DNA of 63,967 nucleotides, counting the filler. It is 4 parts of 4 records of this genome, joined end to end, with 100 filler letters (N's around TTAATTAATTAA, not from the genome) between each part and the next. Parts side by side here need not be neighbours in the genome. Positions count along the whole stretch, not along the records: positions 1 to 20,658 come from SRR20825019_806; 3 more parts are not named here. One strand, given 5' to 3'. Made by a program: the position numbers and the translations under genes. Positions 7,361 through 56,215 of this stretch are shown one piece after another; position 1 is the first letter of the stretch, and every line of letters begins with the position of its first letter. A model generated the notes under the pieces. That model made no database searches. It had not been told where the DNA came from and saw only the letters and a list, made by a program, of their open reading frames with translations.

Positions 7361-7648
7361 CTAGTCTGCTTTGATGTCTTTCTCGCCGCCGTCAGGTACA
7401 CTTTCCCCACTGGGCTTTCTGCTCTTCAGCAAATGGTACTGATTATAAAGATATCTGCCAGTAAAAAAGTCCAAGAAACTGAAACTTGAGTTCTGATATA
7501 GAAAAGCATCAAAAAAATATTGCTACAGGTGAACAAACACAGAGAGTACCTCGGCAACAACCCGTGCCCCCTGAATCCCTACTGCCAACGTGAGAAGCGC
7601 GACGACTGCAGAAAGCCCTGCAACAACAAATCGCATAGGACACACCAT
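7361..7648 (-). CDS. 76-aa two-exon membrane microprotein (MVCPMRFVVAGLSAVVALL...LDFFTGRYLY), absent from the ORF track
   Basis: Exon 1 7550-7648, GT-AG intron 7493-7549, exon 2 7361-7492, in frame. TATAAAA lies about 45 nt upstream. Confidence 0.7.
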
Positions 7649-7692
7649 CTTGCGTTGTTCTTCTGGAGAGAGTATGGATGTCCTGCCTGGGG

Positions 7693-7701
7693 TATTTTAT
7701 A
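7693..7701 (-). promoter_or_regulatory. TATA-box-like element upstream of the microprotein
   Basis: TATAAAATA on the minus strand, between a GC-rich island and the ATG at 7648. Confidence 0.4.
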
Positions 7702-8431
7702 GGGAGCTGAGTTCGGGGCGGGCGCCTCGTAGGGAAGCCATGGCGCACCCCTTCTCAGTCCGGGTGCGTTTTCCGGGCTTCACTTACTGTGCCTCTGACC
7801 AGTGCCAGGATAAGCTGCTGCGATGGCTCACTTGCCCGGGGCCGCACCATACCGACCCCATTGGCCGTGTGACCTAGCCAGGCACCAGGCAAGCCGGCAG
7901 TCAGTAGGCCGGGCGCTCCCCTGCGAGCTGGAGATCCTCGAAGGCCGCCAACTTAACTGAGGTACCGACCCGGAAACCGGGAAAAGCGAGCCGCCGCGTG
8001 CGCCATGGGGACCAGTGCCGCGTCGCGATCCGGCCCGGGCTGGCCCGACGTCAGCCGCTGGCTCAGTGCAGGGCGGTCGGCCTGACGCGGCTGACCGGCG
8101 CGTGCTCACACAATGGCCCGTGGTGCCGCCGGAGACCTGTGGCTGATGAACCGCCTCTCACGGTGCTTCGGAAATTTGCGTTATCACTGCACCGGAGGGA
8201 CGCCGGGAGGCGTCACAATCGTCACAGGAGCAGTGCGTGCCAGCAGCCAGCACCGGGCGTGGGTGCGCTGGCGATTGTCGTTTCGAGCCTCGGACAAACA
8301 TCGCCGCGCAGCAGGCCACCAAGAACTCATCAGAGACTGGCGGTGCCATCATCGGATCGCTGTGGCCCTACTCCTCACAGTCCCACTTCGAGACCTTTCG
8401 GCTTCAGAAGCAAGTGATTCTACCCTCGATT

Positions 8432-11400
8432 TTAATCAGAATCCTCCTGAGGCAAATCCGGAATCGCCTGATCTGAAATAGATCCAAATATAGGCATTTC
8501 GTTATCAAACGAATCTCGGTTCTTTCCCGCAGATTTGACAGGGAGCTTTTTGGCAAGTTTGGCCCCTGTTCCAGCAAGCTGTCTGCCTCCCAAAAACTTG
8601 CTCTTGGTAATTCTCCTAACAATGTGTTCGGTTTTGTTGACTCGCTTCGAGATATATGAAACCTTCTCCTCAGTAACAGACTGCAGCCTGTTCATCTCGG
8701 ATCGTAGCCGCATCAATTGTGCCTTCTGATCTTTAGCTTCTTCCTCAACCATGCTAAGGATTCCAGACATGGCGACAGCAATATTCCCGCTCGCGAATTC
8801 ATCCTGATCCTTCACCACCATAGACGGACACCAACTTCTTTTTTCTTCGTCGAAGTCGTCATAACGCAGCATTTTCGTGTAGTACATCACATAGTGGCGC
8901 TGGTAGAACAATGATCTAATAATCAAATCCTTGAAAGGAGTGGCGCTGGGGAGATATCGAATGCACAGTTTGTGATACCACTTATGACTAGCGGAATCTT
9001 CACGGCTGAAATTAAGGAAAGGAAACAGCCTTTTCGTAATACTACTGTGGACAATATACCTTCCAAGCGTGAAGCCACTGTCTCGCGGAATAACCTTGAC
9101 AATTGCATCACCCCTGTCCACCAAAAATTCATTATCAGCGTCCTGTCTAACGCTCTCGTAACTGGTTGTCATGGTTGCAATGAGAAGATTCAGAACAATA
9201 ATAGGGCCAATTAGTGTAAACATCACAAAAAACGAAGTCAGAATAGTATTATCTGCTTCCACGATGGTGTCGAAGTCCATATCTCCCATAAGGCCAGAAA
9301 ATAATCCCCATAGAGTGCCCAGGAAGCTTGAGTGGCCCGGAACATGTACGTCCATCATGAAAATTCCCAGACCAAACATCACCATGAACACAAACAACAA
9401 AAAAGAGAACTCCAATAAACTCCAGCACATGCGTACAAGCACGCGCACAGATGTAGACGTCACTCGAAACGCAGTCAAATACTCCAAGGCACGCAGCCAG
9501 ACCACCAAAATCAGAATAGCGAGCAAGTGGCGAGATCCACTCAAATCAGCTTCGAAATAGAATGGGATGCAAACAAATACAAGGAAATACTGAGAGTAGT
9601 CAAACCAATTCCACGGTGATAGAATGTAATTCACCAATTGACGGCCACGCAGCGCATTCAGAAATTCTCTGGATTCACTACGAATCTCCCACCCATTGCA
9701 AGCAAGGATAATGAATCCGAATGTTCTCCGCAATCGCATCACCTGCTCATTAGTGTGTATTGAACCTAATCCTCGTGAAAAGACAATCCACGTAAGGCAG
9801 AAAACAAGAACTCCGTGGACAATTGTATCTAGGATAAAGCGACGCCGAGCAAACCTCCGCCAAAGCGCATCCAACATCACAGACATAGATGGGTGTCCAA
9901 GAATCGTCTTGTTTCTCGACCCTAGAACTTGGAGCAAGGCCGTTTCTCCGTCGCGGCTCATCAGAAACTCAAAATTCTTTTGGGAAAGCGCGAAGTCCAT
10001 AAAAACACGATGTCCATCCGCGGTAGGCATTTTCTCGCCGTGCTGAAAACGATACAATACGTCAGATAGAGTCTTCTCGGATGCTCCCATATCGGCAAGA
10101 TGAAGTATCAACGGACGTTGCGCACTGTTCTCTGAAGGACCCCCTTGCTCTTCTTCAGCAACATTTTCTGCCAAATGGAAAGGATGAATACCCCCCTGAT
10201 ATGAAAAGAATGTATTGACAAGTCCTTGGGTGGCATCGCCACCCCTTGCCGCAATACTCATAGCAGAGAGGCCATCTGCGTTAACACGTAGAGGATCGGC
10301 GCCACGGGAAAAAATAAACTCAGCAATGTCGGTATTGTTTCGAGGATTGTGCTCACAGGCAAGAATCAAGGGAGTATTTTTCCTCGCATCAGGTTGCTCG
10401 ATATCAGCGTGCTGGTCCTCGACGAAAAATTTCACAACATCTAAATGACCACCAATGATTGCATATGACAGTGGGGTGCGCTTCTCCGTGTCCATGTAGT
10501 TGGGTTCAGCACCTTGTCGAATGAGCACCTTCACAATACTCTCGATGCCTCCCATGCACGCATGGTGGAGTGGCGTGCGGCCCCGCTTGTCGCACACTTG
10601 GATGCCAGCCTTGTTCTTAATAAGCATTTGGCACATGGTGAACAACATTTTCTCCATTACGGTCTTTGCATCATCCGTGCTCGTCTGATATGATCTCCAG
10701 CTTTCAAAAGAACCAATCATGTGAAGAGGGGTCTCCCCATTGTTGTTACGGCGATCCACTATCGCCATTGCTGACAAGAGCCGGATCACAATGTCTAATT
10801 TCCTTTCGTGATTGGTGGCAGAATGCTTGTCGTCTGTATGATGCGAAGGATGAGGATCCTTGCGTACTGTTATATGAAGGGGGGTATTCCCGTGCTTATC
10901 GCCGCAATTCACATCAAGTACCTGATGTTTGTGCTTCTTGGCAAGATGGAAAAAGTGCTCCAATAGAGATACATTATTAGTTTGAACAAGTAGATGAAGA
11001 GGGGTCTTCCCATTGATGTCGTACATGTTGACAAAGGAAAAATCACCGAATTCCCTACCAATGCCTCCCAACACAGGCATTTTCCTTCTCTTTTCTTCCT
11101 TAAACAAGTATTCCAAGACTCTCTTTTTCCTTGGCAAAATCGACTCATCGCAATCTACATCTACAGCATGATGCAATGGTGTGCGCTCATCTACATCGAA
11201 CTTCACACGCTCACACTTGGCATCTAGCAGCAGCCGGATGCATTCATCGTTTGCCTCTTTGGCCGCAAGATGCATCGGTGTGCGATTAAAAACGTCTCGT
11301 GCATCATTGGCCTGCTTTCCGGAATGTTCCAACAGAACTTGCAATACCGACCTCCCCATATTGTTGGGCAGGCTTGCCGCGATGTGAAATGGCGTTCGGC

Positions 11401-13298
11401 CATCTCTATTCGCGCCTGTCAGATCAACCCCGTACTTCAACATCTTCGACACCACGGATACCATGTTTTTCTCAACTGCAAGGTGGACTAAAAAAGAAAT
11501 GTCAGTCAGCAAAACAAGGTTCATCATCGGTTTCACATACGCGGAGTGTCCTGATTCGCATTTGCATAATTGAATATGTGAGTCCGAACGGATTCAACAT
11601 CATCACATTTGTCCAACATCGTAAAAAAGATCTGTGCTTTGGTTTCCAAATTAGCCGTCCCCAAATTGGCCGGTGGTTCGTCGAATACACTGTGGAAGCA
11701 CATGTTGTCTTCGTCGGACAAGACTTCTGGCGCAAACCCATGGGCTAAAAGTGTCTTAACGTACTCGAGTTGGCCCAGTCGAGCAGATACATGCAGCGGC
11801 GATTCGTTCCTGAGTGACTCTCTCGCATGGAGGAGCACAGGATACCGATCTAGCATGGTCTTCAGTTTGGATATGTTGTACATATTGTTCGGCCCTGAAG
11901 GGGGCATTTCTATAAGTTCAAAGAGCTCGTTGCGGAGGTTCACGTCGGTCACTTCGATCATCCCAGACGCTCTTCTACGGATAGGCGGTGCGGTGCCCGC
12001 GTCTCCGTTATCTTTCACACCCGATAGGGATATATCACCCTGAAGTTGTGCCTGCTCCAGATAATCCTCGTCCGGTGTATACTTCCACAACATTGACAAC
12101 TTGGATATTCCGTACTCTCCAGATACGCCAGCAAAACCGAGAACTGATGCTTGATCAGCTGGTCTCATCACAAACGGCTCACCGCTCGGCTCTCTTGTTT
12201 TAATGCGAAACTCCTCATACTTGCCCAGACTCGTGGTAATAGCAATCGCCTCGATCCGCCTGTCCTCGGCATTGTACACACCTGACACTAACAACACGCT
12301 CTCCCCAGGGCGAAGCTCGAAGTCATGGCGCGCCTCATCGGGCAGCATGTTGCGAGAAGCCCTGACCTCGCTCTTTTTCTGTTCGTCACCCTCTAACGCA
12401 GACTCGGGCAAAGAGTCGGAACCCCAAGATGGAGCGATACCGAGCAGACCTGTGCTAAGATTCATCCATACGTGAACTTTGGTCATTCTAAACGGTTTTC
12501 CTTCTCTCTCCATAGCTTCAACAGCAACCATGTCATCAAATTTTAACTGCGTTTTCCCCAAAGGTTTCTTGCCAACTACAAAGGACCTATGAATACTGCG
12601 GTCTCTCCTTACAACATGGTAGAACTCGTCACGAAGGTATCTCGGCACCCTCTGAAACGTCACTCCGATGGTATTCAAAAAATCACTGGATGAACCAAAA
12701 AGGGTAACAACGTGCTTGTCCGGCATCTTTGCAGAAAAAGGCTTGCCAACTCGCGTACCAAAGGACACTTGGTGGCCTCTATTCGTAGTGAACTGGAGGG
12801 AATAAATCCCTGCACGGTCTGCACCAAACTCCGAGTCCCCATCCTCGTCTAGAGCCGTCCCGTCAACTACAGTAAGATATTCTCCACTTCTAAGATTAAA
12901 AACCGATCGCTTAGCCCCGGGAAAAAGACCCAGCGGCTCAGGCATTTGAACCTTAGACTCGTCCTTGATGTTCCACACGACTTGAACACCGTAGATTCTA
13001 CATTCCGAAAAAATTAGTCAAAAGTGACAACTGAAAGTAATAGCGAGATTCACCTCGACCCATGCCACACTCTGATGCTCTTGATAGAGTACATTTTTCC
13101 GGCTCCAGCCCAAGATGAAAACATGGACGTGTCGTCAAAGTCGCGGCTGTTTGGGGCCCGCTTGCCAAACGCGCGCGTCTTGAAAAAGTTTGTATCACGA
13201 TCTTCAACCTGCATGACGTCCGTTAGAAACCCGGACCTGCGGCGCATTCTGCGCGCTTGAGTCCCAAGCTGGCCAAAAGCGTCGTTGAGCTTTTCCAT
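8432..13298 (-). CDS. TRP-family cation channel with two N-terminal jacalin-like domains and about 12-13 ankyrin repeats, about 1585 aa, 3 exons
   Basis: Exons 13054-13298, 11541-12997 and 8432-11487. Introns 12998-13053 and 11488-11540 are GT-AG with branch motifs. Splicing rebuilds a TPLHLA ankyrin motif across intron 2. Six-TM region with WNWFD, pore LMGDMDF, S6 VLNLLIATMTTSYESV, and a C-terminal coiled coil. Confidence 0.88.
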
Positions 13299-14440
13299 CG
13301 TATCAATAGACGAAGAAACGCCAAAAGAAACAATACGTCAGATTTTGCAACTATGTAAAATTAATTAAGCTAAGCCAAAGGACTTTTTCTTGGGCTTGGG
13401 GCACACGGCTCAGGAAGTGCCCGTGTCACGTCGACCGACGACAGAACCGGCCTGTGGCAAGTCGTGCAGTGTCGCGGTCGTCTTGTGGCCGCTGATCGCC
13501 TCAACGGGACCAGCTATGACCGAGCTAGCTATGATGGCGGGGAGAATAGTCGGGGCAGAGTGCCGATTTCGCTTGGCCGGCCGGAACGGGCCATCCAGCC
13601 CAGTGGCTGGACCGGGCCGGGCGGCGCGGGCGGGTCAGGTGCAGGCCGGCCAGTCCGGTCTCAGTGGTCCGCGGATGGGCCGCGCGGGGAGCCGGAACAA
13701 CTGAGGAAGCTGAGCGAACTCGGCAACCCCCCGGGCGGGACTGCTGACCTCGGGACTGACGTGCCGTGTCATGAGCCGGGCTGGTCAGCAGCGGCCCTCG
13801 GAGCCGCGTTCGACGGCGCAGCCGGTGACCCACGGCCACAGTGCATCCGCCGTACAACTAATGAACCCCTTCGGTCCCCGAACGGGGGGAGCCGGACCAC
13901 TGCCTGACAATGACCCGGGCCGCGGCCCGCCGGCCCGCTGCCGACCGGAGCCGGCGGCGCGGCGGCGGCGCCCGGCCCCCGGGCCGGCCGGGCCCGCGCC
14001 GCCGGCCTCTGGTGCGACGCGGGGCCGCCGGGCCGGGTGCGCCAAGGCTAGTTTGCCGGTGAGGCGACCCAGTGTGAGTGAGTGTCCCTGCGTCCCGGCT
14101 GACTGAAGTGACCGGCCCGGCCCGCCAACCGTGGGCCGCTGAACGGCGGGGGGCCGAGGCCCAATGAATGGCAACGCGGCCCACAGCGGGTGAGGACGGA
14201 ATGGCGCCCCCCGGCCCCGCCACCGGCCAGGTCCCGCGGCGCCGCGCCCGGCCCGGGCCCGTCCCGCCATGCCGCCTGCCACGCACGCCATTGTTCACTC
14301 CCCGCGATTCCCTGGCGCTCGTGCTGCGGCCCCGCGTCACAGCGCCTAACCTTTTCACACGTAGTTTCCAGCGCTCAGCCACAAATAGAAAAGAGTCAAT
14401 CCTGTCCTGCGTGTGCCTATCGTGGATTGATGGATTGACC

Positions 14441-15930
14441 ATGGCTAAGGACAGGCTCGCAAAACATGGAAGCCCCGTCTCCAACTATGGAAGCATATCT
14501 CCCCCTGGCCCTCGGCCTTCACGCTCACAAAGTATCCTGGCTTTAGACGTATCGAAGAGCGAGTCTAGTTACCACGACGACTACATTGAGTTTACACTTG
14601 GCGAGCCACACGCAGGCACAGATACTTCTGCCCCGCTGGAGCACTTCAATCCGTTTCGTGAGGATATCCGCGGCAATCTGAGGATGCGGCGGGAACAAAA
14701 ACAGCACCTCAAGCGGGCTGCTCTGTGCACTTATGAGGAAATTCCCGAGAGGATTCGCGACAATAAGTATCTGCGATATGGATACCGACGTATAGGCACT
14801 TCTTATTGCGGATGCGTGGGGAGTGCCTTTTACCAGAACAACCAAACCCTTAACATATGGACGTCTCTTTCCGCGATTTTTATGCATATTTATCTTGCCG
14901 TTGATGTTTTTGTTTTTAAAGGTGGGAACTTGATGCTTGTATTCGTTTGCCTGATCATGATGGTTGCTTAGGGTGGCTCACGGGGATAGATATGCAACGA
15001 GAAGGAGTTAAGGTGAGAAGTGTGGGTGCAAGTCCGTTGCCGCCTAACTCACCTTGGTCACAGCATGTGGATAAGGTGTTCTTCGCGTGGTGGTTTTTTT
15101 GCAATGTTCTCATGAACGTTGCTTCAACCATGGCGCACATGTTCTCTTGTCACCAAGAGTCGCACTTCTGGAAATGGTTCCAGTTCGATGTGTCTAGTTT
15201 CTGCTGTATTACATTTGTACACATTTATGGCACTGAGCTGTACAACTGGTATCTTCCGAATGAGTGGTTACTCCCCTATCTCATTCTTGCATATGGAGTA
15301 TCCATTTACTTCTTTCTGGCATTGATATATTGGAATTTCTTTAACCCGAAAGTCCCCAAGTGGCAAAAAGTAATTGTTGCTTGCCTGGTCGCAATCTTCT
15401 CAGGAGTTCCAGTCATACATCGCATGTTTTTTGTTCGTTGGGAATGGGCTTGGGCGATTACATTCTGCACCCTCCTCATGGGTGGCGTTGTTTTTGCAGG
15501 CTTCCTTCCGGAGCGCTGGGCTCCACCAGGAAGTTTGGACTTTGAGTTTTATAGCCACCCACTATGGCACCTTTTGTATGTAGCTGCCTTCTTGGTTATG
15601 ACAATTGCGTACTTCGAGGATTACCTGAATACAAGGCACATGGTGCCGAGAGGGGCTATTCGAGATCAGTATCCGATTTGGGTCATGCTTATGATTCCTG
15701 CCTTCGCGCTGTTGCCATTCTGGAGGTCAGTAATAGTAGCATGGTGGCGTAACTACGAGTATAAGGCTCATCAGAGGGAGCTACGCCGGAGAGCCGAGAC
15801 AGGATACACGGATGGATGGCATCGCATGAGTGAGATGGAGCCAGGAAATGACACTATTGTCAAGAAAGAGCTCGCACAGCCCCAGACAACATCCAAAGAC
15901 TTGCAAATTGACCCTGCCAACTCCCAATAG
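14441..15930 (+). CDS. PAQR / haemolysin-III family (adiponectin-receptor-like) 7-TM protein, 2 exons
   Basis: IPERIRDNKYLRYGYR, NQTLNIWT, STMAHMFSCH, PERWAPPGSLDF...SHPLWH. Intron 14922-14971 joins the two ORFs in frame. Confidence 0.88.
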
Positions 15931-20630: not shown

Positions 20631-20658
20631 GGGAGGGAGGGGGGGGGGGGGGGGGGGG
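20631..20658. repeat. Poly-G tract at contig end
   Basis: gggagggagg followed by 18 more G immediately before the linker. Confidence 0.9.
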
Positions 20659-20758
20659 NNNNNNNNNNNNNNNNNNNNNNNNNNNNNNNNNNNNNNNNNN
20701 NNTTAATTAATTAANNNNNNNNNNNNNNNNNNNNNNNNNNNNNNNNNNNNNNNNNNNN
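20659..20758. other. Artificial contig linker
   Basis: 44 N + TTAATTAATTAA (stop codons in all six frames) + 44 N. Confidence 0.98.
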
Positions 20759-34577: not shown

Positions 34578-34677
34578 NNNNNNNNNNNNNNNNNNNNNNN
34601 NNNNNNNNNNNNNNNNNNNNNTTAATTAATTAANNNNNNNNNNNNNNNNNNNNNNNNNNNNNNNNNNNNNNNNNNNN
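34578..34677. other. Artificial contig linker (eukaryote/bacterium boundary)
   Basis: 44 N + TTAATTAATTAA + 44 N. Confidence 0.98.
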
Positions 34678-34706
34678 AGGCGCTCTCCCAGCTGAGCTAT
34701 AGCCCC
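34678..34706 (-). tRNA. tRNA-Ala, 5' part only (anticodon not visible)
   Basis: Reverse complement reads GGGGCTATAGCTCAGCTGGGAGAGCGCCT, the acceptor 5' strand and D-arm of bacterial tRNA-Ala. Confidence 0.88.
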
Positions 34707-34943
34707 AATCTTCAGACCGCCGGAGCGGTGCGAAGCGACGTTTTCGCGTCGGGTGGCGGCTTGTTACTGTGGATTTTCTCCCGATGCAAGCCCCAAAAAA
34801 TTCAAAGCCCGGAAAAAAATCAGCCATGCCCGATCTGCCGTCGAACTTGCACGAAAACGGAGATCTTCCGTGCCGTCAAAATCAAAACACCGGCTCGCTT
34901 GGACCCGGCGTTGCGTCGTCGTCAATGATCGCGCGCTGCGAAA

Positions 34944-35333
34944 TCAGCTGTCGTCGTCGTCATCCGACACGCCGATAATGCCGGAGACATCGTCGTCTTC
35001 GTCATCGTCGGCCTCAAGGAAGGTATCGTCGTCATCGTCATCGAGATCGACATCATCATCGTCGTCGTCGCCCGTAACATTGTCGGAGGGGCTGTCGTCG
35101 TCGGATGCCTCGATGGAGGCCAGTTCGACATCGCCCTCTTCGGCATCGACTTCCTTGACGTCGTTTTCCTCTTCCTCGGTTTCGACAACTGCGATCGAGG
35201 CGGTATCCTCGAAATAGGACAACGGCCAGGAAGCGCCCGAATAGGGCGAAACCACCGGGTCCTTGTTCAGGTCATAGAATTTCTTGCCCGTATCCGGGCA
35301 TGTTCTTTTGGTTCCGAGTTCCGCTTTCGCCAC
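34944..35333 (-). CDS. TIGR02300 / FYDLN_acid family protein
   Basis: GTG start after GAGAGG. MAKAELGTKRTCPDTGKKFYDLNKDPVVSPY followed by an acidic tail. Confidence 0.93.
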   Translation of the reverse strand: MAKAELGTKRTCPDTGKKFYDLNKDPVVSPYSGASWPLSYFEDTASIAVVETEEEENDVKEVDAEEGDVELASIEASDDDSPSDNVTGDDDDDDVDLDDDDDDTFLEADDDEDDDVSGIIGVSDDDDDS

Positions 35334-35544
35334 GATCGACCTCTCATGTTGCGGTTGAAGGCTGGCATCACCAGCGCCTGTGCGCTTTTGCATCAGGCGG
35401 TCCCTTATCGTCATGCCGTCCGTCTGTCAAAGGCTAAGTTCACCGTTTTTCCAGCCGCCGCGGAAGCCGGGCGGGATCGTCAATTTCGACGTTAACCATT
35501 TTTAAGAACCTTTTCTTAAATCCTGCCGGCTAGATGCTGTTTCC

Positions 35545-36135
35545 ATGTCTATTCGTCGTATCGCAACCCTCTTTGCGGTGATCTGCCTTGCCGCACTCGC
35601 GTCTTGCTCGACCACGGTCAGCAATGTCGGCAACAGCTGTGCGATCTTCGCCCAGAAAAACGGCATGTTCGAAAACTGGCAACGTGACGCGGAGAAAGCC
35701 TCGCGCGATTACGGGGTGCCGGTTTCGGTGCTGATGGCGACGATCTACGTCGAATCCTCCTTCGATTCCCACGCGCGGCCGCCGCGCAAGAAAATCCTGG
35801 GTTTCATTCCCGGTCCCCGGGCCTCCAGCGCACTCGGCTATTCGCAGGCGCTTGACGGCACCTGGGCGGAATATCAGTCCCGCAGCGGCCAGCGTGGCGC
35901 CAGCCGCACGGATTTTGGCGACGCCATCTATTTTGTCGCCTGGTATCACTATCAGAGCCATATCCGGAACGGCATCGCGCTCAACGATCCCTACAATCTC
36001 TACCTCGCCTATCATTCCGGCCACAGCGGCTATTCCCGTGGCGTGTGGAAAAGCCGGCCGGTAGCCAAGAGCGCCGCGGCGCGCGCCCAGAAGATGACAC
36101 AGATCTACGAGGCCCAGCTTCGGCGCTGCTCCTGA
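35545..36135 (+). CDS. Lipoprotein with SLT (lytic transglycosylase-like) domain
   Basis: Lipobox LASC. ATIYVESSF (catalytic Glu), SALGYSQA, LYLAYHSG. Confidence 0.85.
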   Translation: MSIRRIATLFAVICLAALASCSTTVSNVGNSCAIFAQKNGMFENWQRDAEKASRDYGVPVSVLMATIYVESSFDSHARPPRKKILGFIPGPRASSALGYSQALDGTWAEYQSRSGQRGASRTDFGDAIYFVAWYHYQSHIRNGIALNDPYNLYLAYHSGHSGYSRGVWKSRPVAKSAAARAQKMTQIYEAQLRRCS

Positions 36136-36136
36136 T

Positions 36137-36179
36137 TAAGGTCCGGCCCGCGTTTCATGGAATCGCGGGCCGGACCTTA
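36137..36179. terminator. 16-bp perfect hairpin between the convergent SLT and algL-like genes
   Basis: TAAGGTCCGGCCCGCG-N11-CGCGGGCCGGACCTTA. Confidence 0.75.
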
Positions 36180-36237
36180 TCTTCCTGTTATGCCGCATTT
36201 TCGCGGACGTCAGGCGTATCCGCCTGACTGCGAAATG

Positions 36238-37368
36238 CTACTTCCCGCCAGCAAAACATCCCGGCTGCATCGCCGGGTTGTTGCGATAAAGCAGGGTCAT
36301 GTCTCCCCCGAGCTTGGAATTGGAAAGCGGGCGCAGCGGCGCAAGCGTTCGGTCCAGATCGCCATCGCTCACGAGGCTGAGATAGGCCTCCAGCCAGGCA
36401 ATCGTGAACGGCTCCTGATTGGCAAGCCCCTGCGGGACCGATTGATGGACCCCGGCAATGTCGGCGACCTTCGAAGGGTCTTCGATACCCGCCAGCACGA
36501 AGCCGACCGCCTTTCTGATCACCGCCTCCTCGTCTGCGGTATAGCTGTAGTCATTGTGGCAGATCAGCGCGGCAGAGGCCGCAAGCGGCGCGAGCGCATG
36601 GAGTTGGTAATGCAGCGCATATTTTCCGCGGCGCATTTCATAGGGCATGCTGCCATCCTCGCGGACCGTCGCCAGCACGGCGCGATGACTTGCAAACGCC
36701 CAGTTGATGAAATCCTGGCTTTTGAGGATCAGCGCGATTTCCGTCACCGCATAGGCAGCCCATAGCCGGAGATTGCCGAGTTTCGCCTTTGGCGGGGCGT
36801 CATTGTCCCAGTAGGCGACCAGAAAATCGCCGTTCTTCTTAAGCCAGGCCTCGATCGCCGCCTTCTCGTCTGTGAGACCGTCGGCCTGATCGCGCACCTG
36901 ACGGTAGGCGCTGGCAATGCCGCCGACGCGGGCGGCGTAGGTCATCTTCGCGTTTTCGGTTTCCAGCCTGCCGAAGGCATCGGCCGCGGCCCAGTCATGG
37001 ATGCCGTTGACCACGCAGGCCGCATTGAAGGCGGCGATGCCGGGATTGGCGCGGGCATCATTGGCAAGGCCGGTGATCTGACGGATGAAGGTATCGGCGT
37101 CCTTCAGCGACGCATCCACCTCGGCGTCGCTCTCCTCATCGAGTTTCGAACGGTCGGCGCTGCTTTCGTCATAGCGGCTGCCATAATCGAGCGTGACGCT
37201 CGGCGGCGGAAATGCCGGACACGCCTCATCGCCATCCGCCGCGAAAGCAGGAGAGCCGGCGAGCGCAAGAAAGGCAGCCCCGGCCGCCAGCCGGCCGAAC
37301 TGGAGGAGGGATGGTCGCGGCGGTGAATAATCGGCCAAATCGCAGCCCTTTCGTTTGGTCATGTTCAA
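36238..37368 (-). CDS. algL: AlgL-like PL5 alginate lyase with divergent active-site motif
   Basis: Signal peptide, SRY motif, CVVNGIHDWAAADA, GNLRLWAA at the NNHSYWAA position, DGSMPYEMRRGKYALHYQLHALAPL, SKLGGD. Last gene of the alg operon. Confidence 0.78.
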   Translation of the reverse strand: MNMTKRKGCDLADYSPPRPSLLQFGRLAAGAAFLALAGSPAFAADGDEACPAFPPPSVTLDYGSRYDESSADRSKLDEESDAEVDASLKDADTFIRQITGLANDARANPGIAAFNAACVVNGIHDWAAADAFGRLETENAKMTYAARVGGIASAYRQVRDQADGLTDEKAAIEAWLKKNGDFLVAYWDNDAPPKAKLGNLRLWAAYAVTEIALILKSQDFINWAFASHRAVLATVREDGSMPYEMRRGKYALHYQLHALAPLAASAALICHNDYSYTADEEAVIRKAVGFVLAGIEDPSKVADIAGVHQSVPQGLANQEPFTIAWLEAYLSLVSDGDLDRTLAPLRPLSNSKLGGDMTLLYRNNPAMQPGCFAGGK

Positions 37369-40127
37369 TGCAGTTTGAGGCCGGAGAACAGGGTCCCGGC
37401 GGTTTCATTGCCCGCCGCGGCGGCAGCCTTCAGCCATTCCATGGCCTTGTCGGCCGAATGCTCGACGCCGGCGCCGAAGGCATAGGCCTGGGCAAGCAGC
37501 AGCATCGCCTCGGCATCGCCGGCGTTGGCGGCATTCGCAAGCCATTCCGTCGCTTCGCCCGCCTCATTTTCCGAGGCAGGGTCGCCGCGCAACGTCTTGG
37601 CGAGTTCGCGCATGGCCACAGGATCGCCGGCCTCGGCGGCCTTGCGATAGGCGGCCTTCATGTCGAAGGCCTCGCTGACCCTGTTTCTGACGGATTCGGG
37701 CGCGTATTTCAGCCGGTTGGCAAGACCGTGAAGCTCGGAAGGGGCGGCCTTCTCAAGCTCCTCCAGCAGAAGTTTCGCGTGCTCTTCTTCCTGGTAGAAC
37801 CGGCTGTCGGGATCGGAGTACCAGTCGAGCAGCCGGCGCGAGGCGGGATCGTAACCCTGGCCGTGGGCGGCTTCATATAGCTTGAAGGCCTCCTCGCGAT
37901 CGGCGATCGAGCCGAGCGTGGTGTAGATGTCGGCGAGCTTGACCTGCTGCCAGCCCTGCTCCGGCGAAAGCGCCAGGGCGACATCGAGCGCATTGTCGGC
38001 CTCGTCGGCTCGCCCGGCGTTCAGCGCGTACCGGGCCTTGCGGGCAAGGGCGTTCAGATCGCAGGACATGGCCGCCTTGGCGCGCCCATAGAAAAGCGCC
38101 CGGTCCTCGTCGCTTTCGGCACGGGTCGCGGCAAAAAGCAGGGCCTCGAAATCGCCATGGGCTGCGATATCCGAAAGCATGTCCTGCGGCGGGTCGTAAC
38201 GGCCCTTGCCGGCGGCGCGATAGGCATCATCGAGATGCCAGAGCGTGGAGCCCTTGATCTGCCCCCCGGCCTCTTCGACGAGCGCCGTGGCCTTGTCGAG
38301 GGAAGCGACATCATCGGTCGACGCGGTCATATGGATTTCGGCGAGCACGGCGGTGGCCGCGACATCGCCGGTGCTCGCAAGCGCTTCCAGCGCGGACAGA
38401 ACGCTGCCGCGCTCCTCGTCGGTCCCGGCCGCATGATAGGCGCCTTCAAGCACCGAAGCCTCGCCGCCTTCCTGCCCGCGCATCGCGCTGCGCCAATGCG
38501 CGACGATATCGTCGAACCGGTCGGGGTGCAGCCGCGCCAGAAGCGAGGTCAGGTCTCCAGCCGCCCCCGTGCTTCCGGACAGCGCAGCGCTCTGCAGGCG
38601 GGCGGTCGCCTCCGCATTGTCGGCGAGTGTGTCGGCGGTGATATCTTCCGGCAGTTGCGGCCAGTTATCGCGATCGAGATTTTTCCATTTCTCCCACTCG
38701 GCCGTTTGAGGGCCGTCGGGATTGGCGCACAGCAATGCGTTCTTCAACGCGTCCACGGCCGTGGACTTGCCTTCGGTGGCGATCAGTTGCTTGAGCAATT
38801 CGACGGCCTTCCGGCGGTCGGCGTCGTCGCCGTCGCGCAGGTAAAGCCGGGCAAGTTCGAGCTTGCCTGCGCTGTCGCCCCGCTCGGCAGCCGCTTCGAA
38901 CAGCCTCCGGGCCTCCTCCTGCCCCTCCCATGGTCCGCTGTCATCGAGGCTCATCGCGCCGAGGCGTGAAAACGCCCAGCCCGGCGCATCGGGAAAGCGC
39001 GCCAGCGCCACCAGCCTGTCGTGATATTTCTGCCGGTCCTCCGGCGTATCGAGCCCGCGCGCGGCGAGCAGGCGCGTGGCGCCGGCAAAGCCCTCGCGCT
39101 CACCGTCTTCCGCAAGCTGATCGTAGATCGCCATCGCCCGCTCCGGATCGGTCGGCACCAGCACGCCGTCCTCGTAGAGCTTCGCCATCTGCACCTTCGC
39201 CGGGACGATATCGGCGTCGAAGGCCTGCTGAAGATAGCGCAGCAGCCTGGTGTTGTCCTTTTCGATGCCTTCGCCGGAAAGATGGTAGCGCGCGGTCTGC
39301 CATGCGGACTGGCCATCGCCCAGATCGGCGGCGAAGCGATACCACGCTTCGGCAAGCACATGGTTCTGCGCGATCACCTCGCCGCTTTCAAATGCCCGCG
39401 CGATCCGCCGCACGCGTCCGCAAATCGCGTTGTCGAGATTGCCGAGCAGGGATGAAAAGCCGAGCGTGAAGGCCAGTTCGGGGTCCATATCCCAGCCCGG
39501 GACCTCTTCCCCCTTGCTGGTTTTCTCGGCCAGATACAGCACCGCGTCGGGATCGCCATTATAGGCGGCCTGGAGTTTGCGCTGGATGCCGCGGTCGATG
39601 TCCTGCGGCACCGCCTTGCCCTCCAGATAAAGGTCGGCGAGAAAGTTCACCGTGCCCGGCGTCGCGGCCGGCCCTATGGTTTCCAGCTCGGTGACGAAGC
39701 CGGTTGCCTTCAACTCGTCGAAACGCTGCGCCTCGACATAAAGCGCCACCACGTCGAGCAGATAGGCGGCCCTGCTGTAATAGGGATCTTCCTGGCGGCG
39801 CAGATCGTAGGCGGACTTGACGGTGTCGAAATACTTGTCCGCATCGATATTGCGGAGCCGCATCAGCTCGCGGTCGAGGTCGCGGTATTCGACGCCACGC
39901 GGCAGCTGCTGGCCGTCCCAGTTCGACCATTGCAGTTCCAGCGCGTCGTTGGACTTGCGGTCGGCGCACACCTTCGCCGCCTCGATTTCGGGCGGACGGA
40001 AATCGATGACGGGCTGCTGCGCCATCGCCGTCGACGTTCCGGCGGCAGAAACCGCAAATGCCAACAGAAATGACCGGGCACGACCCCGCCCACAAACCCG
40101 CAATCCGGCAATGCTAAACCGCTTCAT
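37365..40127 (-). CDS. Large exported Sel1-like repeat protein, about 920 aa
   Basis: Signal peptide ending ...TAMA. Many Sel1 repeats (AEAWYRFAADLGD; AMLLLAQAYAFGAGVEHSADKAMEWLKAAAAAGN). ATGA overlaps with both neighbours. Confidence 0.85.
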   Translation of the reverse strand: MKRFSIAGLRVCGRGRARSFLLAFAVSAAGTSTAMAQQPVIDFRPPEIEAAKVCADRKSNDALELQWSNWDGQQLPRGVEYRDLDRELMRLRNIDADKYFDTVKSAYDLRRQEDPYYSRAAYLLDVVALYVEAQRFDELKATGFVTELETIGPAATPGTVNFLADLYLEGKAVPQDIDRGIQRKLQAAYNGDPDAVLYLAEKTSKGEEVPGWDMDPELAFTLGFSSLLGNLDNAICGRVRRIARAFESGEVIAQNHVLAEAWYRFAADLGDGQSAWQTARYHLSGEGIEKDNTRLLRYLQQAFDADIVPAKVQMAKLYEDGVLVPTDPERAMAIYDQLAEDGEREGFAGATRLLAARGLDTPEDRQKYHDRLVALARFPDAPGWAFSRLGAMSLDDSGPWEGQEEARRLFEAAAERGDSAGKLELARLYLRDGDDADRRKAVELLKQLIATEGKSTAVDALKNALLCANPDGPQTAEWEKWKNLDRDNWPQLPEDITADTLADNAEATARLQSAALSGSTGAAGDLTSLLARLHPDRFDDIVAHWRSAMRGQEGGEASVLEGAYHAAGTDEERGSVLSALEALASTGDVAATAVLAEIHMTASTDDVASLDKATALVEEAGGQIKGSTLWHLDDAYRAAGKGRYDPPQDMLSDIAAHGDFEALLFAATRAESDEDRALFYGRAKAAMSCDLNALARKARYALNAGRADEADNALDVALALSPEQGWQQVKLADIYTTLGSIADREEAFKLYEAAHGQGYDPASRRLLDWYSDPDSRFYQEEEHAKLLLEELEKAAPSELHGLANRLKYAPESVRNRVSEAFDMKAAYRKAAEAGDPVAMRELAKTLRGDPASENEAGEATEWLANAANAGDAEAMLLLAQAYAFGAGVEHSADKAMEWLKAAAAAGNETAGTLFSGLKLH

Positions 40128-41176
40128 TCGCTTCCTTTCGGCGCCTCGCCGCACCCTTCAGCACCGCAATCGCCGGCAGCGCTTGCCGCAAGCATCTCCC
40201 ATGGCTGCGGGCCGTAGCTTGCGAGATTGCTTGCCGGCGGCACCTCCCATATCAGGAACAGCGGCGGTCTGGACTGGAAATCGCCCGACCGGAGATAATC
40301 GGTCACGGCCTTGAACGGGCTGCCCGAAACGCTCGCCCGGTTATCGACATCCATGCCCGAGAGCTGTTTCAGAAACCCGTCGAAATGGCTCTGGCCATCG
40401 GCCGAGAACCGCGACCCGACAAGCACCACCGGCGCCGGCGCGTCGGCCCCCAGAATATTGAACGGCCGATCGGCGGCGAAGGCTTCCTCGCCCACGGTCT
40501 CGTAGCGGGTCTCCGTCACCGCCGGCAGGCTCTCGCTGCAATGGGCCTGGATCGCCTCGCGCAGGTCCGATCTGCGGGTGTAATCCTCGCCCCGCGTGGT
40601 GGTGAATGTCATCAGATTGGCCTTGTGCGACTGTGGCATCGCGTTGAGCTTTTCGGCGATCGCCGTGGCGGCAAGGCGCGCGCCATCGCTCGTCCACAAC
40701 GGATCGGCTTTCTGGAAGGCAGGACTGTCATCGGACGTCTTCGCCCGCATCGGCGTCAGCAGGTCGACCGCGACCACGCCTGCATCATCCAGCCGCTTGA
40801 CAGCTTCCTGATAGATTTCGGTATTGACGGTATCCTGATAACCGTAAAGCCAGGCCGATTGCGGCACCTTGTCGGCAAGCACCTGACTGCGCGTTGGAAC
40901 GGGCACAAAGACAAGAATGGTCCCGTGCGCCTTCAGGAGCCCAGAAAACGCCGAGATGCTTTCCACCAGCGCCGGATCGGCGACCGACTGCATCGCGATA
41001 TCGTCCATCACGGTAAAGAAAAACCCGTCCTTGCCTTCAAGCGCCTGTGGCTCGCCCTTGTCCGCCAGATTGACGCAACCGTAGAGCGATTGCGCCTCTT
41101 CGGCATGCGCGATGCCGCCACCAAGGCCGGCCGCGATACACAATGCCGCGATCCTTGTCACACCAACCATGCTCAT
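40124..41176 (-). CDS. AlgX/AlgJ-like SGNH-family periplasmic protein, catalytic residues degenerate
   Basis: EGKDGFFF, GTILVFVPVPTR, DPLWTSDGARLAA, VVLVGSRFS, FDGFLKQ, PPLFLIWE. Confidence 0.82.
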   Translation of the reverse strand: MSMVGVTRIAALCIAAGLGGGIAHAEEAQSLYGCVNLADKGEPQALEGKDGFFFTVMDDIAMQSVADPALVESISAFSGLLKAHGTILVFVPVPTRSQVLADKVPQSAWLYGYQDTVNTEIYQEAVKRLDDAGVVAVDLLTPMRAKTSDDSPAFQKADPLWTSDGARLAATAIAEKLNAMPQSHKANLMTFTTTRGEDYTRRSDLREAIQAHCSESLPAVTETRYETVGEEAFAADRPFNILGADAPAPVVLVGSRFSADGQSHFDGFLKQLSGMDVDNRASVSGSPFKAVTDYLRSGDFQSRPPLFLIWEVPPASNLASYGPQPWEMLAASAAGDCGAEGCGEAPKGSE

Positions 41177-41913
41177 CCTCCCCCATCTTGAACCTCGGGC
41201 TCCGGGAATGCCCGCAGCAGGTTTTCCGCCGCGGTGCGTGTTCCCAGATCCGAGCTTTGCTGCGCCATCCGCAGATAAGCCCGCACCGCCGCGGCATCCT
41301 CGCTGGCAAGCGGTGCGCCGGATGCAATCATCATGGCCATCTGCAGGGCCAGGTCTGCATCGATGGATTGCTGATTGGCCGCCGCCAGCAAAAGCGCCCT
41401 CGCCTTTTTGGGCTGTGCCCCGAACGGGTGGCCCTGCATATAAAGGCGCGCCAGCGCTATGGCCGACGCCGGATCGCCAGCCGCCGCCTGTCTGGCGAGC
41501 GCGTTTTCGATATGGGCAAGCCGCACCGGCGAAATCTCGCTGGACCGGTCCGACAGGATATCGAGCAGGGCCGGTATGGCGTAAGCGCGGCCATCATCCA
41601 CCGCGATCGCGAGATACTGCGCGGCCTTGCCGTTCAGGTCGGGCCTGTTCATCGCGAGAAGCCGCTGGGCCAGGCGATAAGCGGCCAGCCCGTCGCCAAC
41701 ATCTGCGAGAATCTGAAGCTCCGTGATGGTCACCGGCTCGTCGGCGACGATCCGCGCCCGGATATCCTTGAGCCGCGGCGCGCTGTCATAGACCGAGGCT
41801 ACACGCTGGATCGTCACGGGCCGCCCCTCAAACCGCAGCGGCATGCCGGCGCAAGCAATCGCGGGTAGCAACACAAACGCGGCGGCAACCGCATGGGCCT
41901 TCGCGAACGCCAT
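41173..41913 (-). CDS. Small exported Sel1/TPR-like helical protein (AlgK-like candidate), 246 aa
   Basis: True start is ATG 41913, 1 nt after the algG-like stop. Signal peptide. LADVGDGLAAYRLA and AAAGDPASAIALARLYMQG. Confidence 0.7.
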   Translation of the reverse strand: MAFAKAHAVAAAFVLLPAIACAGMPLRFEGRPVTIQRVASVYDSAPRLKDIRARIVADEPVTITELQILADVGDGLAAYRLAQRLLAMNRPDLNGKAAQYLAIAVDDGRAYAIPALLDILSDRSSEISPVRLAHIENALARQAAAGDPASAIALARLYMQGHPFGAQPKKARALLLAAANQQSIDADLALQMAMMIASGAPLASEDAAAVRAYLRMAQQSSDLGTRTAAENLLRAFPEPEVQDGGG

Positions 41914-41914
41914 C

Positions 41915-43516
41915 TCACTCGCCCTCCCCGCGATCGCAGCCGGTATAATCGGCCAGGCTGAACTGACCGCGATTGCCGCGAAACAGCGACGGCGCGGCGG
42001 AGCCGGCGGCGGATATCGCAAAACCGGTGTCGGCTCCATCCGCAAGGCCGCGCTTGAAGGTGAGATAGCGCGGCGTTTCATATTGCAGCGCGCCGGCAAA
42101 CAGCACCGGCAACTGGCTGGAGAGATCGTTTTGCCGCAACAGCAGGCGCGAGAAGCGTTCCGCCGAAATACCGGAAACATTGGCGAGGAAGATATTGTCC
42201 GTGATCTCGGTCTCGTCATCGGGAGAGATCGCATCATTGACGGCGATGCCCGCGCCCTGATTGCGGGCGAGCAGATTGCCGGAAATCCGCACGCCGAGGC
42301 TCTGGACGACCCGAATGCCGTCGGCGCGATTGCGAAGCGTGGCGTTGGCGAAAATATCGACACAGGCCCCGCCCGCGACCGAAATGCCTTCAACGCCGTT
42401 TGCCAGAAGAACATTGCCCGTGATCGTCGCATGGCCGACGCCGTCGCGCGCGAAAATGCCGCGACCGGCATTTTCCGCCATCACATTTCCGCTCACCAGC
42501 GTGCTCTTTCCGCCGATCATCAGCAGGCCGTGCTGGCCGCTCGCAACGATCAGATTGTCGGCAATGACGCCGTGATCAACCCGCTCGAGCCTGAGCCCGA
42601 TGCCGCGCGCGCTGTCGATCCGGTTCCCGGAGAAGCGAAAATCGGCAAGGCCGGTCGCTTCCACCGAGCGGATATTCTTCAGCACATTGCCGGAAACAAG
42701 GCCGCTGCTGCGGTTTCCGGCGTAACGGCTTGAGCCAAAGCCGACGCCGCTCAACAACGGCTGGCCGTCATAGCCGAGATCTGACAGACGGCTGTTTGCG
42801 ATCTCCGCCCGGCCGCCGCGCACTGTCAGGATAAAAGGATGGAAATCGACAATTCGCGCGGCTGCGGCAGAGCCGACGACCTCGGCGTTACGGATCGTCA
42901 GCAGGCCCTCATTGATGATGAAGGCGCCCCGCTCCGTCGCCATTTCCAGCCGGTCGCCCTCGCCCATCGACAGCGCGGCGTTTTTGGAAATGACGAGCGG
43001 TATCGTGAGACGATAGCTATGGTCCGCCGCCGCAAGCAGGCCGCCCTGGCCTCTATCCGCCAGCGCCCCGGAAAGTCCGGCAAGGGTGAAGTCGCCGCCT
43101 TTCAGCAGCAGCGCCTGCCCGCCGGAGGGCGATGCCGCCTCCATCAGTTCGCGGTGACCGAGATTGCCGATCTCCAGCGCGACCTGCTGCAGGATCGGCG
43201 CCAGCAGGGCCTTGTCGAATTCGGCAGGGGCAATCTCGCTCCCGCCGGCGGCAACAGAGCCGGCCACGGCCTCCGATTGTTGCGGCAGAGCCTCAGGCAC
43301 GACCTCGACGCCCGCCTCCTCCATCAACGTCCCGGCGGCGGAAAGCGGCGGCCCGATGCCCGCATCGTCGTTCTTCAACGTCTCAAGCAGACGATCGGCA
43401 TTGCGGTTGATCTGTTCCAGGCGTTCGTGATCGAGCGCTTCGGCGGAGGGCGCAAAGGCGGCCAGCAGCAGCAGCAACGCTGCGCAGCATCCGGAAAAGC
43501 GCCCGCTGCGGATCAT
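41915..43516 (-). CDS. AlgG-like right-handed parallel beta-helix (CASH/NosD) protein lacking the DPHD motif
   Basis: Signal peptide. AlgG-type segments YRLTIPLVIS, ERGAFIINEGLL, FHPFIL, SRLSDLGY, and repeated (I/V)xGNxxxxN turns. Confidence 0.78.
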   Translation of the reverse strand: MIRSGRFSGCCAALLLLLAAFAPSAEALDHERLEQINRNADRLLETLKNDDAGIGPPLSAAGTLMEEAGVEVVPEALPQQSEAVAGSVAAGGSEIAPAEFDKALLAPILQQVALEIGNLGHRELMEAASPSGGQALLLKGGDFTLAGLSGALADRGQGGLLAAADHSYRLTIPLVISKNAALSMGEGDRLEMATERGAFIINEGLLTIRNAEVVGSAAAARIVDFHPFILTVRGGRAEIANSRLSDLGYDGQPLLSGVGFGSSRYAGNRSSGLVSGNVLKNIRSVEATGLADFRFSGNRIDSARGIGLRLERVDHGVIADNLIVASGQHGLLMIGGKSTLVSGNVMAENAGRGIFARDGVGHATITGNVLLANGVEGISVAGGACVDIFANATLRNRADGIRVVQSLGVRISGNLLARNQGAGIAVNDAISPDDETEITDNIFLANVSGISAERFSRLLLRQNDLSSQLPVLFAGALQYETPRYLTFKRGLADGADTGFAISAAGSAAPSLFRGNRGQFSLADYTGCDRGEGE

Positions 43517-46097: not shown

Positions 46098-46106
46098 GCG
46101 AAGCTC

Positions 46107-47579: not shown

Positions 47580-47586
47580 CCCGTTC

Positions 47587-48906: not shown

Positions 48907-48965
48907 ATGACCCTCCTTTGGGTCTGAACAACCGGAAAGCCAATCAGCGCCCGGAAACCACACTC

Positions 48966-48981
48966 TGCCAGTTTCATGCCA
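48966..48981 (-). promoter_or_regulatory. Candidate sigma-54 (-24/-12) promoter, proximal
   Basis: TGGCATGAAACTGGCA has GG-N10-GC spacing, 60 nt upstream of algD. Confidence 0.5.
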
Positions 48982-49016
48982 ACCGGATCGCCGGAACGGT
49001 TGCGCTTCTTCCGAAT

Positions 49017-49032
49017 TGCAAGCCATCGGCCA
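49017..49032 (-). promoter_or_regulatory. Candidate sigma-54 (-24/-12) promoter, distal
   Basis: TGGCCGATGGCTTGCA has GG-N10-GC spacing with TTGCA. Confidence 0.5.
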
Positions 49033-49162
49033 GGTTGGCAACCTGGTTGGAGCCTTTCAAAAGAAGCCCACAGCGAAGTTGTCAATAGCTTGTAGCCGCA
49101 ATTCCTAAAGATACCGTATTCATGGTTGTTTTTTAACCTCGCCCGGTTTTCTACGCGTAGTA

Positions 49163-50932: not shown

Positions 50933-51100
50933 TGTGTCTTCTCCCGTCAACAGGCTTCCTCATGCGCCAGAGTGGCGAAACTCTTCGCGCGGGTCCACGG
51001 ACCTTTTGAATATTTTCGGTCTTCGCGCTCCGAAACGGCGTTCTCCGGCAAGCGCCGCGCCCCCTATAGGCGGATATCCTCCAAAAAACCGGCAGGTTTC

Positions 51101-51125
51101 GGAACGTTCACTGCGCAGAGCCGTT
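51101..51125 (+). promoter_or_regulatory. EcfG/RpoE2/SigT-type general-stress promoter
   Basis: GGAAC-N16-CGTT, ending about 30 nt upstream of ATG 51158. Confidence 0.75.
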
Positions 51126-51157
51126 TATGGAGTATCAATTTCAACCGGAGCAGAAAA

Positions 51158-51232
51158 ATGAGTGGTATTATTTATCTCGTCGGCCTCATCGTTGTGGTCA
51201 TGTTCATCCTTTCCGTTCTGGGTCTGGCGTGA
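51158..51232 (+). CDS. 24-aa single-TM small protein MSGIIYLVGLIVVVMFILSVLGLA
   Basis: GGAG RBS, ATG, fully hydrophobic helix. Stop lies 2 nt before the next ATG. Confidence 0.7.
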   Translation: MSGIIYLVGLIVVVMFILSVLGLA

Positions 51233-51234
51233 TC

Positions 51235-51849: not shown

Positions 51850-51874
51850 GCATCGCTGAAACCAGGAAACGAGG

Positions 51875-56199: not shown

Positions 56200-56215
56200 A
56201 CCGGCTTTCCGTGTT

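Follow-up and report, generated by a model that had tools for sequence, protein, structure and literature searches.

The minus-strand locus at positions 8432 to 13298 of the stretch of DNA analysed here (63,967 nucleotides (nt) in four joined contigs, hereafter the window) raises two questions: do its open reading frames (ORFs) encode one protein in which jacalin-type lectin domains precede an ankyrin-repeat TRP channel, and, if so, what could lectin-fold domains do at such a place? The original prediction, made from the letters of the window, proposed that three ORFs join through two canonical introns into a protein of about 1585 amino acids (aa), with two beta-prism-like repeats at a cytosolic N-terminus, about 12-13 ankyrin repeats and a six-transmembrane (6-TM) TRP pore, and that this channel senses glycans or other ligands. 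We find that a three-exon gene of a microbial eukaryote encodes a jacalin-jacalin-ankyrin(~12)-TRP pore protein. As judged from the sequence comparisons, this fusion is a real, lineage-restricted TRP variant, for which a counterpart was not found in the databases or literature searched.

When the three ORFs are joined, a coding sequence of 4758 nt is obtained, corresponding to 1585 codons and one terminal stop (Table 1), and both introns have GT..AG ends. The junction of intron 2 reads NQDTP/LHLAVEKN, by which the ankyrin motif TPLHLA is restored. This junction is also observed in transcript data. The public run X1, the one run found, which contains 16% of the sampled words, was mapped onto 8000..13700 and gives three contigs, which cover 8685-9404, 9589-9739 and the intron 2 junction; elsewhere (exon 1, intron 1, the first and second jacalin-like domains D1 and D2, and most of the ankyrin repeats) the run is blank, which is uninformative. 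One of these contigs (172 nt, depth 2.3) joins 11487 to 11541, such that exactly the 53-nt intron 2 is missing, and the ends of the gap, CT..AC as read on the plus strand, correspond to GT..AG in the direction of the gene. The end of another X1 contig carries 25 foreign letters, which match an oligo used for template switching in Smart-seq-type cDNA protocols and given in the oligo section of bioRxiv 10.1101/2021.03.24.436752; this string is present in 386 papers. X1 is therefore derived from cDNA, and splicing accounts for the 11487/11541 joint. Of the two junctions it is the more important one, because it connects the exon with the jacalin-like domains and the first ankyrin repeat to the exon with the remaining ankyrin repeats and the channel; D2 is linked to the first ankyrin repeat without splicing, since both are encoded by the 494-codon ORF of exon 2. 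The gene is transcribed and spliced, at least in part.

Intron 1 is predicted, its support being the GT..AG ends, the typical size, the preserved reading frame and the continuity of the jacalin domain. Without its removal the frame meets a TGA immediately past the donor. The FDD motif of D1 sits at aa 54-56, within exon 1, and a home-made jacalin profile, built from 34 jacalin domains taken from database matches, aligns with aa 69-194 without a break over the junction. The score of this profile is 58.8 bits with exon 1 and 53.3 bits without it, and this gain of 5.5 bits is reached by none of 20 shuffles of the exon-1 residues (best shuffle 56.1 bits), which can be taken as modest support for the intron. 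The start codon is the ATG at 13298, the first one downstream of an in-frame TGA (13340..13338). Between this TGA and the ATG the dinucleotide AG is absent, as read by eye, and an upstream coding exon that joins the exon 1 frame there is therefore impossible. Short introns are the rule in the two eukaryote-like contigs, 1 and 2: a loose 45-80-nt intron pattern (GT...CTRAY...YAG) has 30 matches in 34.6 kb of eukaryote-like sequence, and 8 matches in 29.3 kb of bacterial sequence. Folding of the intron RNA gives no structure beyond that of shuffled sequences for either of the two introns (z -0.28 and 0.15).

A separate observation concerns the oligo at 8685 (in the X1 contig 8685-9404), which leads into plus-strand sequence, antisense to the TRP gene. 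Either an antisense transcript or an artefact of priming by the oligo could account for this, and strand and ends are not settled by the contigs.

The assignment of the two N-terminal domains follows from profile searches, which were run by exon and which find all three expected families (Jacalin, Ank and Ion_trans). The Pfam Jacalin profile matches exon 2 in two stretches (2.9e-21, 76.7 bits, cut-off 22), and it also matches the exon-2 part of D1 alone (1.6e-13, 51.7 bits, profile positions 35-135 of 136) and D2 alone (2.7e-7, 31.5 bits). Both domains are thereby placed, by sequence, in the Jacalin family PF01419, above its curated threshold. When compared with the sequences of solved structures, D1 is closest to Parkia lectin (5.2e-8) and ipomoelin (5.8e-7), and the matches of D2 are weak (WGA16, 0.39; ZG16, 0.78).

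The fold was examined with an AlphaFold model of exon-2 residues 1-330, calculated with an alignment of 15 jacalin matches, in which D1 is present without its exon-1 strands. The mean pLDDT is 72.7, and most of D2 lies in blocks of 85-93. In Foldseek the best matches of the model are the tandem jacalin 2jz4 (5.6e-10) and Parkia lectin 1zgs, followed by ZG16, WGA16 and banana lectin, with 115 matches at E<=0.001. A structure comparison gives 154 of 981 chains with Z>=8, and its leading rows are jacalin-related lectins. Model residues 131-307 (aa 213-389) superimpose on ZG16 (7o88_A) with a Z of 16.4 and an rmsd of 2.2 A for 134 of 142 residues, and D2 is accordingly modelled as a three-sheet beta-prism I. 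The proposed modelling of the N-terminus thus bears out the fold of D2, and for the truncated D1 it yields tandem-lectin rows alone (1zgr_A, Z 13.6, rmsd 9.8). Because jacalin proteins were supplied as the alignment, the model of D2 is a corroboration and not an independent test.

The region after D2 has the tandem repeats and the TPLH-type motif of the ankyrin repeat family, to which it is assigned by sequence. Exon 3 matches Pfam Ank_2 at 5e-50 (168.5 bits) and Ank at 1.2e-39, and the first repeat is detected at exon-2 residues 398-422 (Ank, 0.0072). There are 10 TP[LFM]H-type motifs at aa 481-905, and two further repeats are seen by eye, giving a total of ~12.

The channel part matches Ion_trans at aa 1177-1351 (5.6e-13, 49.1 bits, cut-off 25) and PKD_channel (2.4e-8, 34.1 bits, cut-off 22.4). 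The closest solved channel is the fly TRPV 'Inactive' (5.5e-10), aligned over aa 1102-1363, from S1 to beyond S6; other matches in the Protein Data Bank (PDB) are YVC1 (3.8e-8), PKD2L1 (4.6e-8), polycystin-2 (~3e-7) and TRPA1 (2.2e-5), and those of TRPV1 and TRPM2 are near 5e-3 to 1e-2. The PDB scores are spread over several subfamilies (TRPV 41.6 bits, TRPY 35.6, TRPP 35.3). The closest Atlas clusters are likewise TRP-type, being Ion_trans/YVC1_C/PKD_channel families (score 0.95, 202 of 256 features in common). These comparisons place the channel part in the TRP superfamily, with no nameable subfamily. The pore loop LMGDMDFD is at aa 1300-1307, with a GD motif that resembles the filters of TRPV and TRPA channels, and the S6 motif LNLLIA is at aa 1333-1338. 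The alignment to Inactive extends ~25 residues past S6 (...adneFlvdrgd versus ...sekeWmkqwak), and what is presumably the conserved Trp of the TRP box is a Phe in the channel and a Trp in Inactive. In the C-terminal tail, the stretch proposed to be a coiled coil has 12 of 23 a/d positions hydrophobic in its best register, by a crude heptad count.

The hydropathy profile has peaks at aa 1117-1145, 1214-1243, 1248-1285 and 1309-1344. Within aa 1-1116 no 19-aa window reaches a hydropathy of 1.4, and the maximum over the first 100 residues is 0.29. In the solved TRP channels the ankyrin-bearing N-termini are cytosolic. Both beta-prisms should be cytosolic as well, when the orientation is taken from this topology, because they come before any membrane segment and no signal-like stretch precedes them. 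The predicted single protein with its two introns, the rebuilt TPLHLA motif, the paired beta-prism-like repeats, the ankyrin array, the 6-TM pore (which is located by Ion_trans, by Inactive and by hydropathy) and the side of the membrane on which the N-terminus lies are thus all retained, of the two introns the second being seen in X1.

The outcome is different for the proposed glycan sensing. Three loops make up the site at which mannose-type jacalin-related lectins bind sugar, namely the GG loop, the recognition loop and the binding loop, the last of which contains a GxxxD motif (PMC4059138). In a reference set of 34 jacalin domains, the GG-loop columns are Gly in 30/34, 28/34 and 30/34 domains; in the GxxxD columns there is G in 20/34, and the Asp column holds D in 20/34, N in 9/34 and H in 4/34. 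D1 and D2 do not align at the GG-loop columns. By eye the residues there are R,A/N,S and L,G/T,Q, with no Gly in D1 and one in D2. At the GxxxD position D1 has S-D-F-L-N, when Parkia lectin has G-D-Y-L-D and ipomoelin G-W-Y-V-D; D2 retains the Gly, and HMMER sets a Ser opposite the Asp of ZG16. Neither domain has the sugar-site features (GG loop and GxxxD) by which the sugar-binding mannose-type jacalin-related lectins are defined. Glycan sensing is therefore unsupported, since these features are absent or altered in both copies, and the suggestion of prey, pathogen or damaged-vacuole sensing is speculation.

The relatives of this protein were searched by part. An exhaustive phmmer search with exon 2 against 1.84 billion representatives finds 94 proteins with E<=1e-3, of which five are at 1e-10 and none at 1e-30; the best match has an E of 7.8e-13 and 38% identity. 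The jacalin part accounts for 16 of these matches and the ankyrin repeat for 78, and none of the 16 has Ank or Ion_trans, all being jacalin-only by Pfam. The channel part has two distant relatives (E ~1e-7), P0095, with ankyrin and Ion_trans domains and from a marine transcriptome, and P0096, with WD40 and Ion_trans domains. When all 96 relatives are scanned with the jacalin profile and the pore region, 16 have jacalin, two have the channel and none has both. No relatives were found by tblastn in the metagenome scans (12 pattern matches for the channel part and 49 for exon 2) or in the genome-contig scan (15), and among longer proteins 0 of 5540 candidates scored in an exon-2 homologue search, which is weak evidence. 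The Atlas search with exon 2 returns small ankyrin clusters alone and is uninformative. No paralogue of the gene was found within the window. The statement that no jacalin-TRP fusion is known also holds for the open-access literature text, where none was found; supplementary domain tables could list one.

The motifs LNLLIA, SPWNW and the GD.DF of the pore loop are invariant between the channel, P0095 and P0096. The pore family seems, from these sequences, to swap its cytosolic N-terminal domains freely. It is also observed that P0095 and P0096 are protist proteins which have, on a similar pore, ankyrins alone in one case and WD40 propellers in the other.

Table 1. Coordinates in the window of the jacalin-ankyrin-TRP gene and of the domains it is predicted to encode.
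Feature	Position	Strand	Content and basis
Source ORFs	13050..13337, 11533..13017 (494 codons), 8432..11593	-	ORF listing
Exon 1	13054..13298	-	aa 1-81 and two bases of codon 82; start codon, lead of ~50 aa, first strands of D1
Intron 1	12998..13053	-	56 nt, GTGAAT...TTGACTAAT...TGTAG, phase 2; predicted
Exon 2	11541..12997	-	aa 82-568; remainder of D1, D2, linker, first ankyrin repeat; uninterrupted ORF
Intron 2	11488..11540	-	53 nt, GTATGT...CTGACTGAC...TTTTTTAG, ends TTTTAG, phase 1; skipped in X1 contig
Exon 3	8432..11487	-	aa 568-1585 and stop; ankyrin repeats, linker, 6-TM pore domain, C-terminal tail
Jacalin-like D1	12661..13139 (span includes intron 1)	-	aa ~54-194; Pfam Jacalin
Jacalin-like D2	12076..12600	-	aa ~215-389; Pfam Jacalin, AlphaFold model compared with ZG16
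Ankyrin region	10220..11811 (span includes intron 2)	-	aa ~478-990, ~12 repeats; Pfam Ank families
S1-S6 pore domain	9158..9841	-	aa 1117-1344; hydropathy, Ion_trans, PDB alignments
C-terminal helical stretch, proposed coiled coil	8600..8758	-	aa ~1478-1530; crude heptad count

It is possible to propose from these data how the protein may work. The polypeptide would be one subunit of a presumably tetrameric, non-selective cation channel of the TRP superfamily. Its N-terminal 1116 residues would be in the cytosol, comprising a short lead, the two beta-prisms, the linker and the ~12 ankyrin repeats, and would be followed by S1-S6 with the GD-containing pore loop and by the helical C-terminal tail. 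In the tetramer, each of the four ankyrin arms would carry two beta-prisms at its distal end, eight in all. Because the GG loop and the GxxxD motif are lost in both domains, the beta-prisms may form a module for binding or anchoring, whose target would be a protein partner or a non-canonical ligand. Occupancy of the beta-prisms, or pull on them, could be relayed via the ankyrin domain to the gate, in the way that has been suggested for the ankyrin domains of other TRP channels. We assign a probability of about 0.55 to this reading, in which a tetrameric cation channel has beta-prisms that bind a partner or non-canonical ligand and relay occupancy or tension through the ankyrin repeats.

Several points weigh against it. 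Intron 1 and the start codon are predicted from the sequence, and the X1 contig that shows the splice of intron 2 has just 40 nt on one side, at its depth of 2.3. The model of D2 is biased towards the jacalin fold by its input alignment, and the AlphaFold model of the membrane part, calculated with a 3-sequence alignment, is unusable (pLDDT 39.8). Cation conduction, the tetramer and a role of the beta-prisms in gating are predictions from the sequence. The N-terminal part is shared by no relative found, and conservation therefore cannot show that the beta-prisms are important. Finally, the Asn of D1 at the Asp column is a recurrent variant among the reference domains, so that D1 may bind a sugar in a non-canonical manner.

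The last point bears on an alternative in which the channel is lectin-gated, one or both beta-prisms binding a cytosolic glycan and thereby opening or tuning the channel; candidate ligands are O-GlcNAc-type modifications, storage glucans and luminal glycans that are exposed by membrane damage. This is in agreement with D1 and D2 being bona fide jacalin-family domains and with the state of the Asp column of D1, which it shares with 9 of the 34 reference domains. In plants, moreover, some jacalin-related lectins are cytosolic or nuclear, and one jacalin-like lectin of wheat has been linked to O-GlcNAc (PMC4131498 and PMC2654674). However, the GG loop is absent in both domains, the GxxxD motif is changed to S...N in D1 and lacks its Asp in D2, and no orthologue was found from which conservation of a site could be judged. 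We consider a lectin-gated channel unlikely.

A little less likely again is young, lineage-specific domain shuffling, in which the jacalin-like domains are neutral passengers, or are decaying, on a protein with an ordinary ankyrin-TRP function. This would fit with the search of 1.84 billion representatives, in which no relative with the same N-terminus was found, with the strong divergence of D2 (seen in its Pfam score and in its best jacalin-family PDB match, at E 0.39) and with the loss of the sugar motifs. On the other hand, ~400 codons have stayed open and still score as folded beta-prisms, with a pLDDT that is mostly 85-93 for D2, and the frame is kept across intron 1, though its loss would cost nothing. 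Slightly more doubtful than this is a specific form of sensing, in which a glycan or small ligand at a reshaped site of D1 or D2 opens the pore through the ankyrin arm; if true, the protein would be the first example among ion channels of gating by a lectin-fold domain, and a natural test case for the coupling of N-terminal ankyrin domains to TRP gates. Lastly, the fusion could be an artefact of ORF reading, produced by a head-to-tail pair of genes, one for a jacalin lectin and one for an ankyrin-TRP channel, or by mis-assembly. This would be compatible with the lack of read support for intron 1, with a contig from a mixed assembly including bacterial contigs and with the D2-to-ankyrin stretch that X1 leaves uncovered. 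It is highly improbable, because a single ORF encodes D2 together with the linker and the first ankyrin repeat, and because the cDNA-type contig shows the jacalin exon spliced to that of the channel at the bases that were predicted; this splice restores an ankyrin motif, and in the unspliced sequence the stop of one gene and the next ATG would be only ~20 nt apart.

The gene lies wholly inside contig 1 (1..20658). The contigs of the window are separated by spacers (each 44 N, TTAATTAATTAA and 44 N) at 20659-20758, 34578-34677 and 53722-53821, across which no inference is made. Contigs 1 and 2 are eukaryote-like, with genes for Utp12/WD40, PAQR, cyclin and Isy1 proteins and with short introns. 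Contigs 3 and 4 consist of bacterial sequence, the source being an assembly or bin in which eukaryote and bacteria are mixed. In the search with the Utp12/WD40 ORF, WD40 proteins dominate, and the sole orthologue-like protein among the 120 matches listed is the oomycete protein P0123 (32% identity, 84% cover). A PAQR/HlyIII-family gene (14168..15930, plus strand) is divergent from the TRP gene; its frame needs a 50-nt GT..AG intron at 14922..14971, and a 51-nt one is possible at 15013..15063. The two genes are separated by an 870-bp spacer with a GC content of 0.69, which is possibly a shared bidirectional promoter region. The GC content of the TRP exons is 0.477 (0.514 at third codon positions), and that of the intergenic flanks is 0.687 (13299-14167) and 0.616 (7500-8431). 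GC-rich islands of ~1 kb recur between genes in both eukaryotic contigs (1-34577), and a blastn self-search finds no repeats that are common to these contigs or to their GC-rich islands. Such an arrangement, in which GC-poorer genes are set between GC-rich spacers, is unusual and could be of use in identifying the lineage.

At its end contig 1 has a poly-G run (~20640-20658), presumably a typical two-colour Illumina artefact. Contig 3 (34678-53721, GC ~0.64) has an alginate-like polysaccharide cluster and ilvD. This cluster includes an alginate-lyase family protein, an AlgG-like beta-helix epimerase, a GT2 glycosyltransferase, a Sel1-repeat protein, a mannose-1-phosphate guanylyltransferase/isomerase and a nucleotide-sugar dehydrogenase, and for three of these proteins (lyase, AlgG-like epimerase and guanylyltransferase) the equivalog score falls under the NCBIfam cut-off. 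Contig 4 (53822-63967, GC ~0.55) has a PAS histidine kinase, two response regulators (one of the HD_5/HD-GYP type and one with HDOD), a pentapeptide-repeat protein, ArgJ and a SurA-like PPIase.

In eukaryotic cells the TRP channels serve as the principal polymodal sensors, and much of their diversity comes from the modules that their cytosolic N-termini carry, such as ankyrin arrays and WD40 propellers; enzyme fusions exist among the TRPM channels. The TRPM channels carry a SLOG domain, as mentioned in part of bioRxiv 10.64898/2026.06.15.732245. A module with a lectin fold, carried at the far end of an ankyrin arm, would be a new kind of TRP attachment. If the beta-prisms bind something, the protein offers a system, testable by deletion, for studying how distal N-terminal events reach the gate. 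A jacalin fold that has been recruited to the cytosolic side of a channel, with a remodelled sugar site, also bears on how lectin folds change their function. This significance is tempered by the fact that it concerns a single gene, with no relatives found that have the same architecture.

When compared with the ankyrin-bearing TRP channels (the TRPV channels including fly Inactive, TRPA1 and NOMPC), the protein is similar in having cytosolic N-terminal ankyrin repeats followed by S1-S6, and its S6 motif LNLLIA aligns with LNMLIA of Inactive. It differs in the two jacalin-like beta-prisms ahead of the ankyrin repeats and in being orthologous to no single subfamily, YVC1 and polycystin-2 scoring nearly as well. 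The nearest precedent for the idea of such a protein is the choanoflagellate 'TRPW' clade. In this clade, WD40 propellers are present in 14 of the 18 S. rosetta members, according to a passage of bioRxiv 10.64898/2026.06.15.732245, in whose main text the word 'lectin' occurs 0 times. As in P0096, a TRP pore is combined there with a cytosolic, beta-rich, non-ankyrin domain in a unicellular eukaryote; in the protein described here, the added domain is a beta-prism I instead of a WD40 propeller, and it stands ahead of an ankyrin array.

In polycystin-1, an 11-TM protein, a C-type lectin domain is extracellular. Polycystin-1 and the C-type lectin domain are also named together in PMC9672506, among other papers. 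The likeness is that a lectin-family domain and a TRP-related pore module occur in one polypeptide, and the difference is that here the lectin fold is of the jacalin type and faces the cytosol, on a 6-TM subunit. Chimeric jacalins form the other group for comparison (natterin-like proteins, plant jacalin-kinases and dirigent-jacalins, and ZG16, the last being the nearest solved fold to D2). Lamprey LPFP, a natterin-like pore former, consists of jacalin and aerolysin parts (PMC5605768), and rice OsJacLK1 is a jacalin chimera of the plant jacalin-kinase type (PMC13165441). In these proteins, as in the channel, a beta-prism recognition module is fused to an effector; the effector, however, is in their case a kinase or a pore former of the secreted beta-barrel type and not an ion channel, and the characterised ones retain the GG and GxxxD sugar site (PMC4059138), a site that is missing from D1 and D2. 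Neither in polycystin-1 nor in the natterin-like proteins does a lectin fold lie at the cytosolic face of a 6-TM channel.

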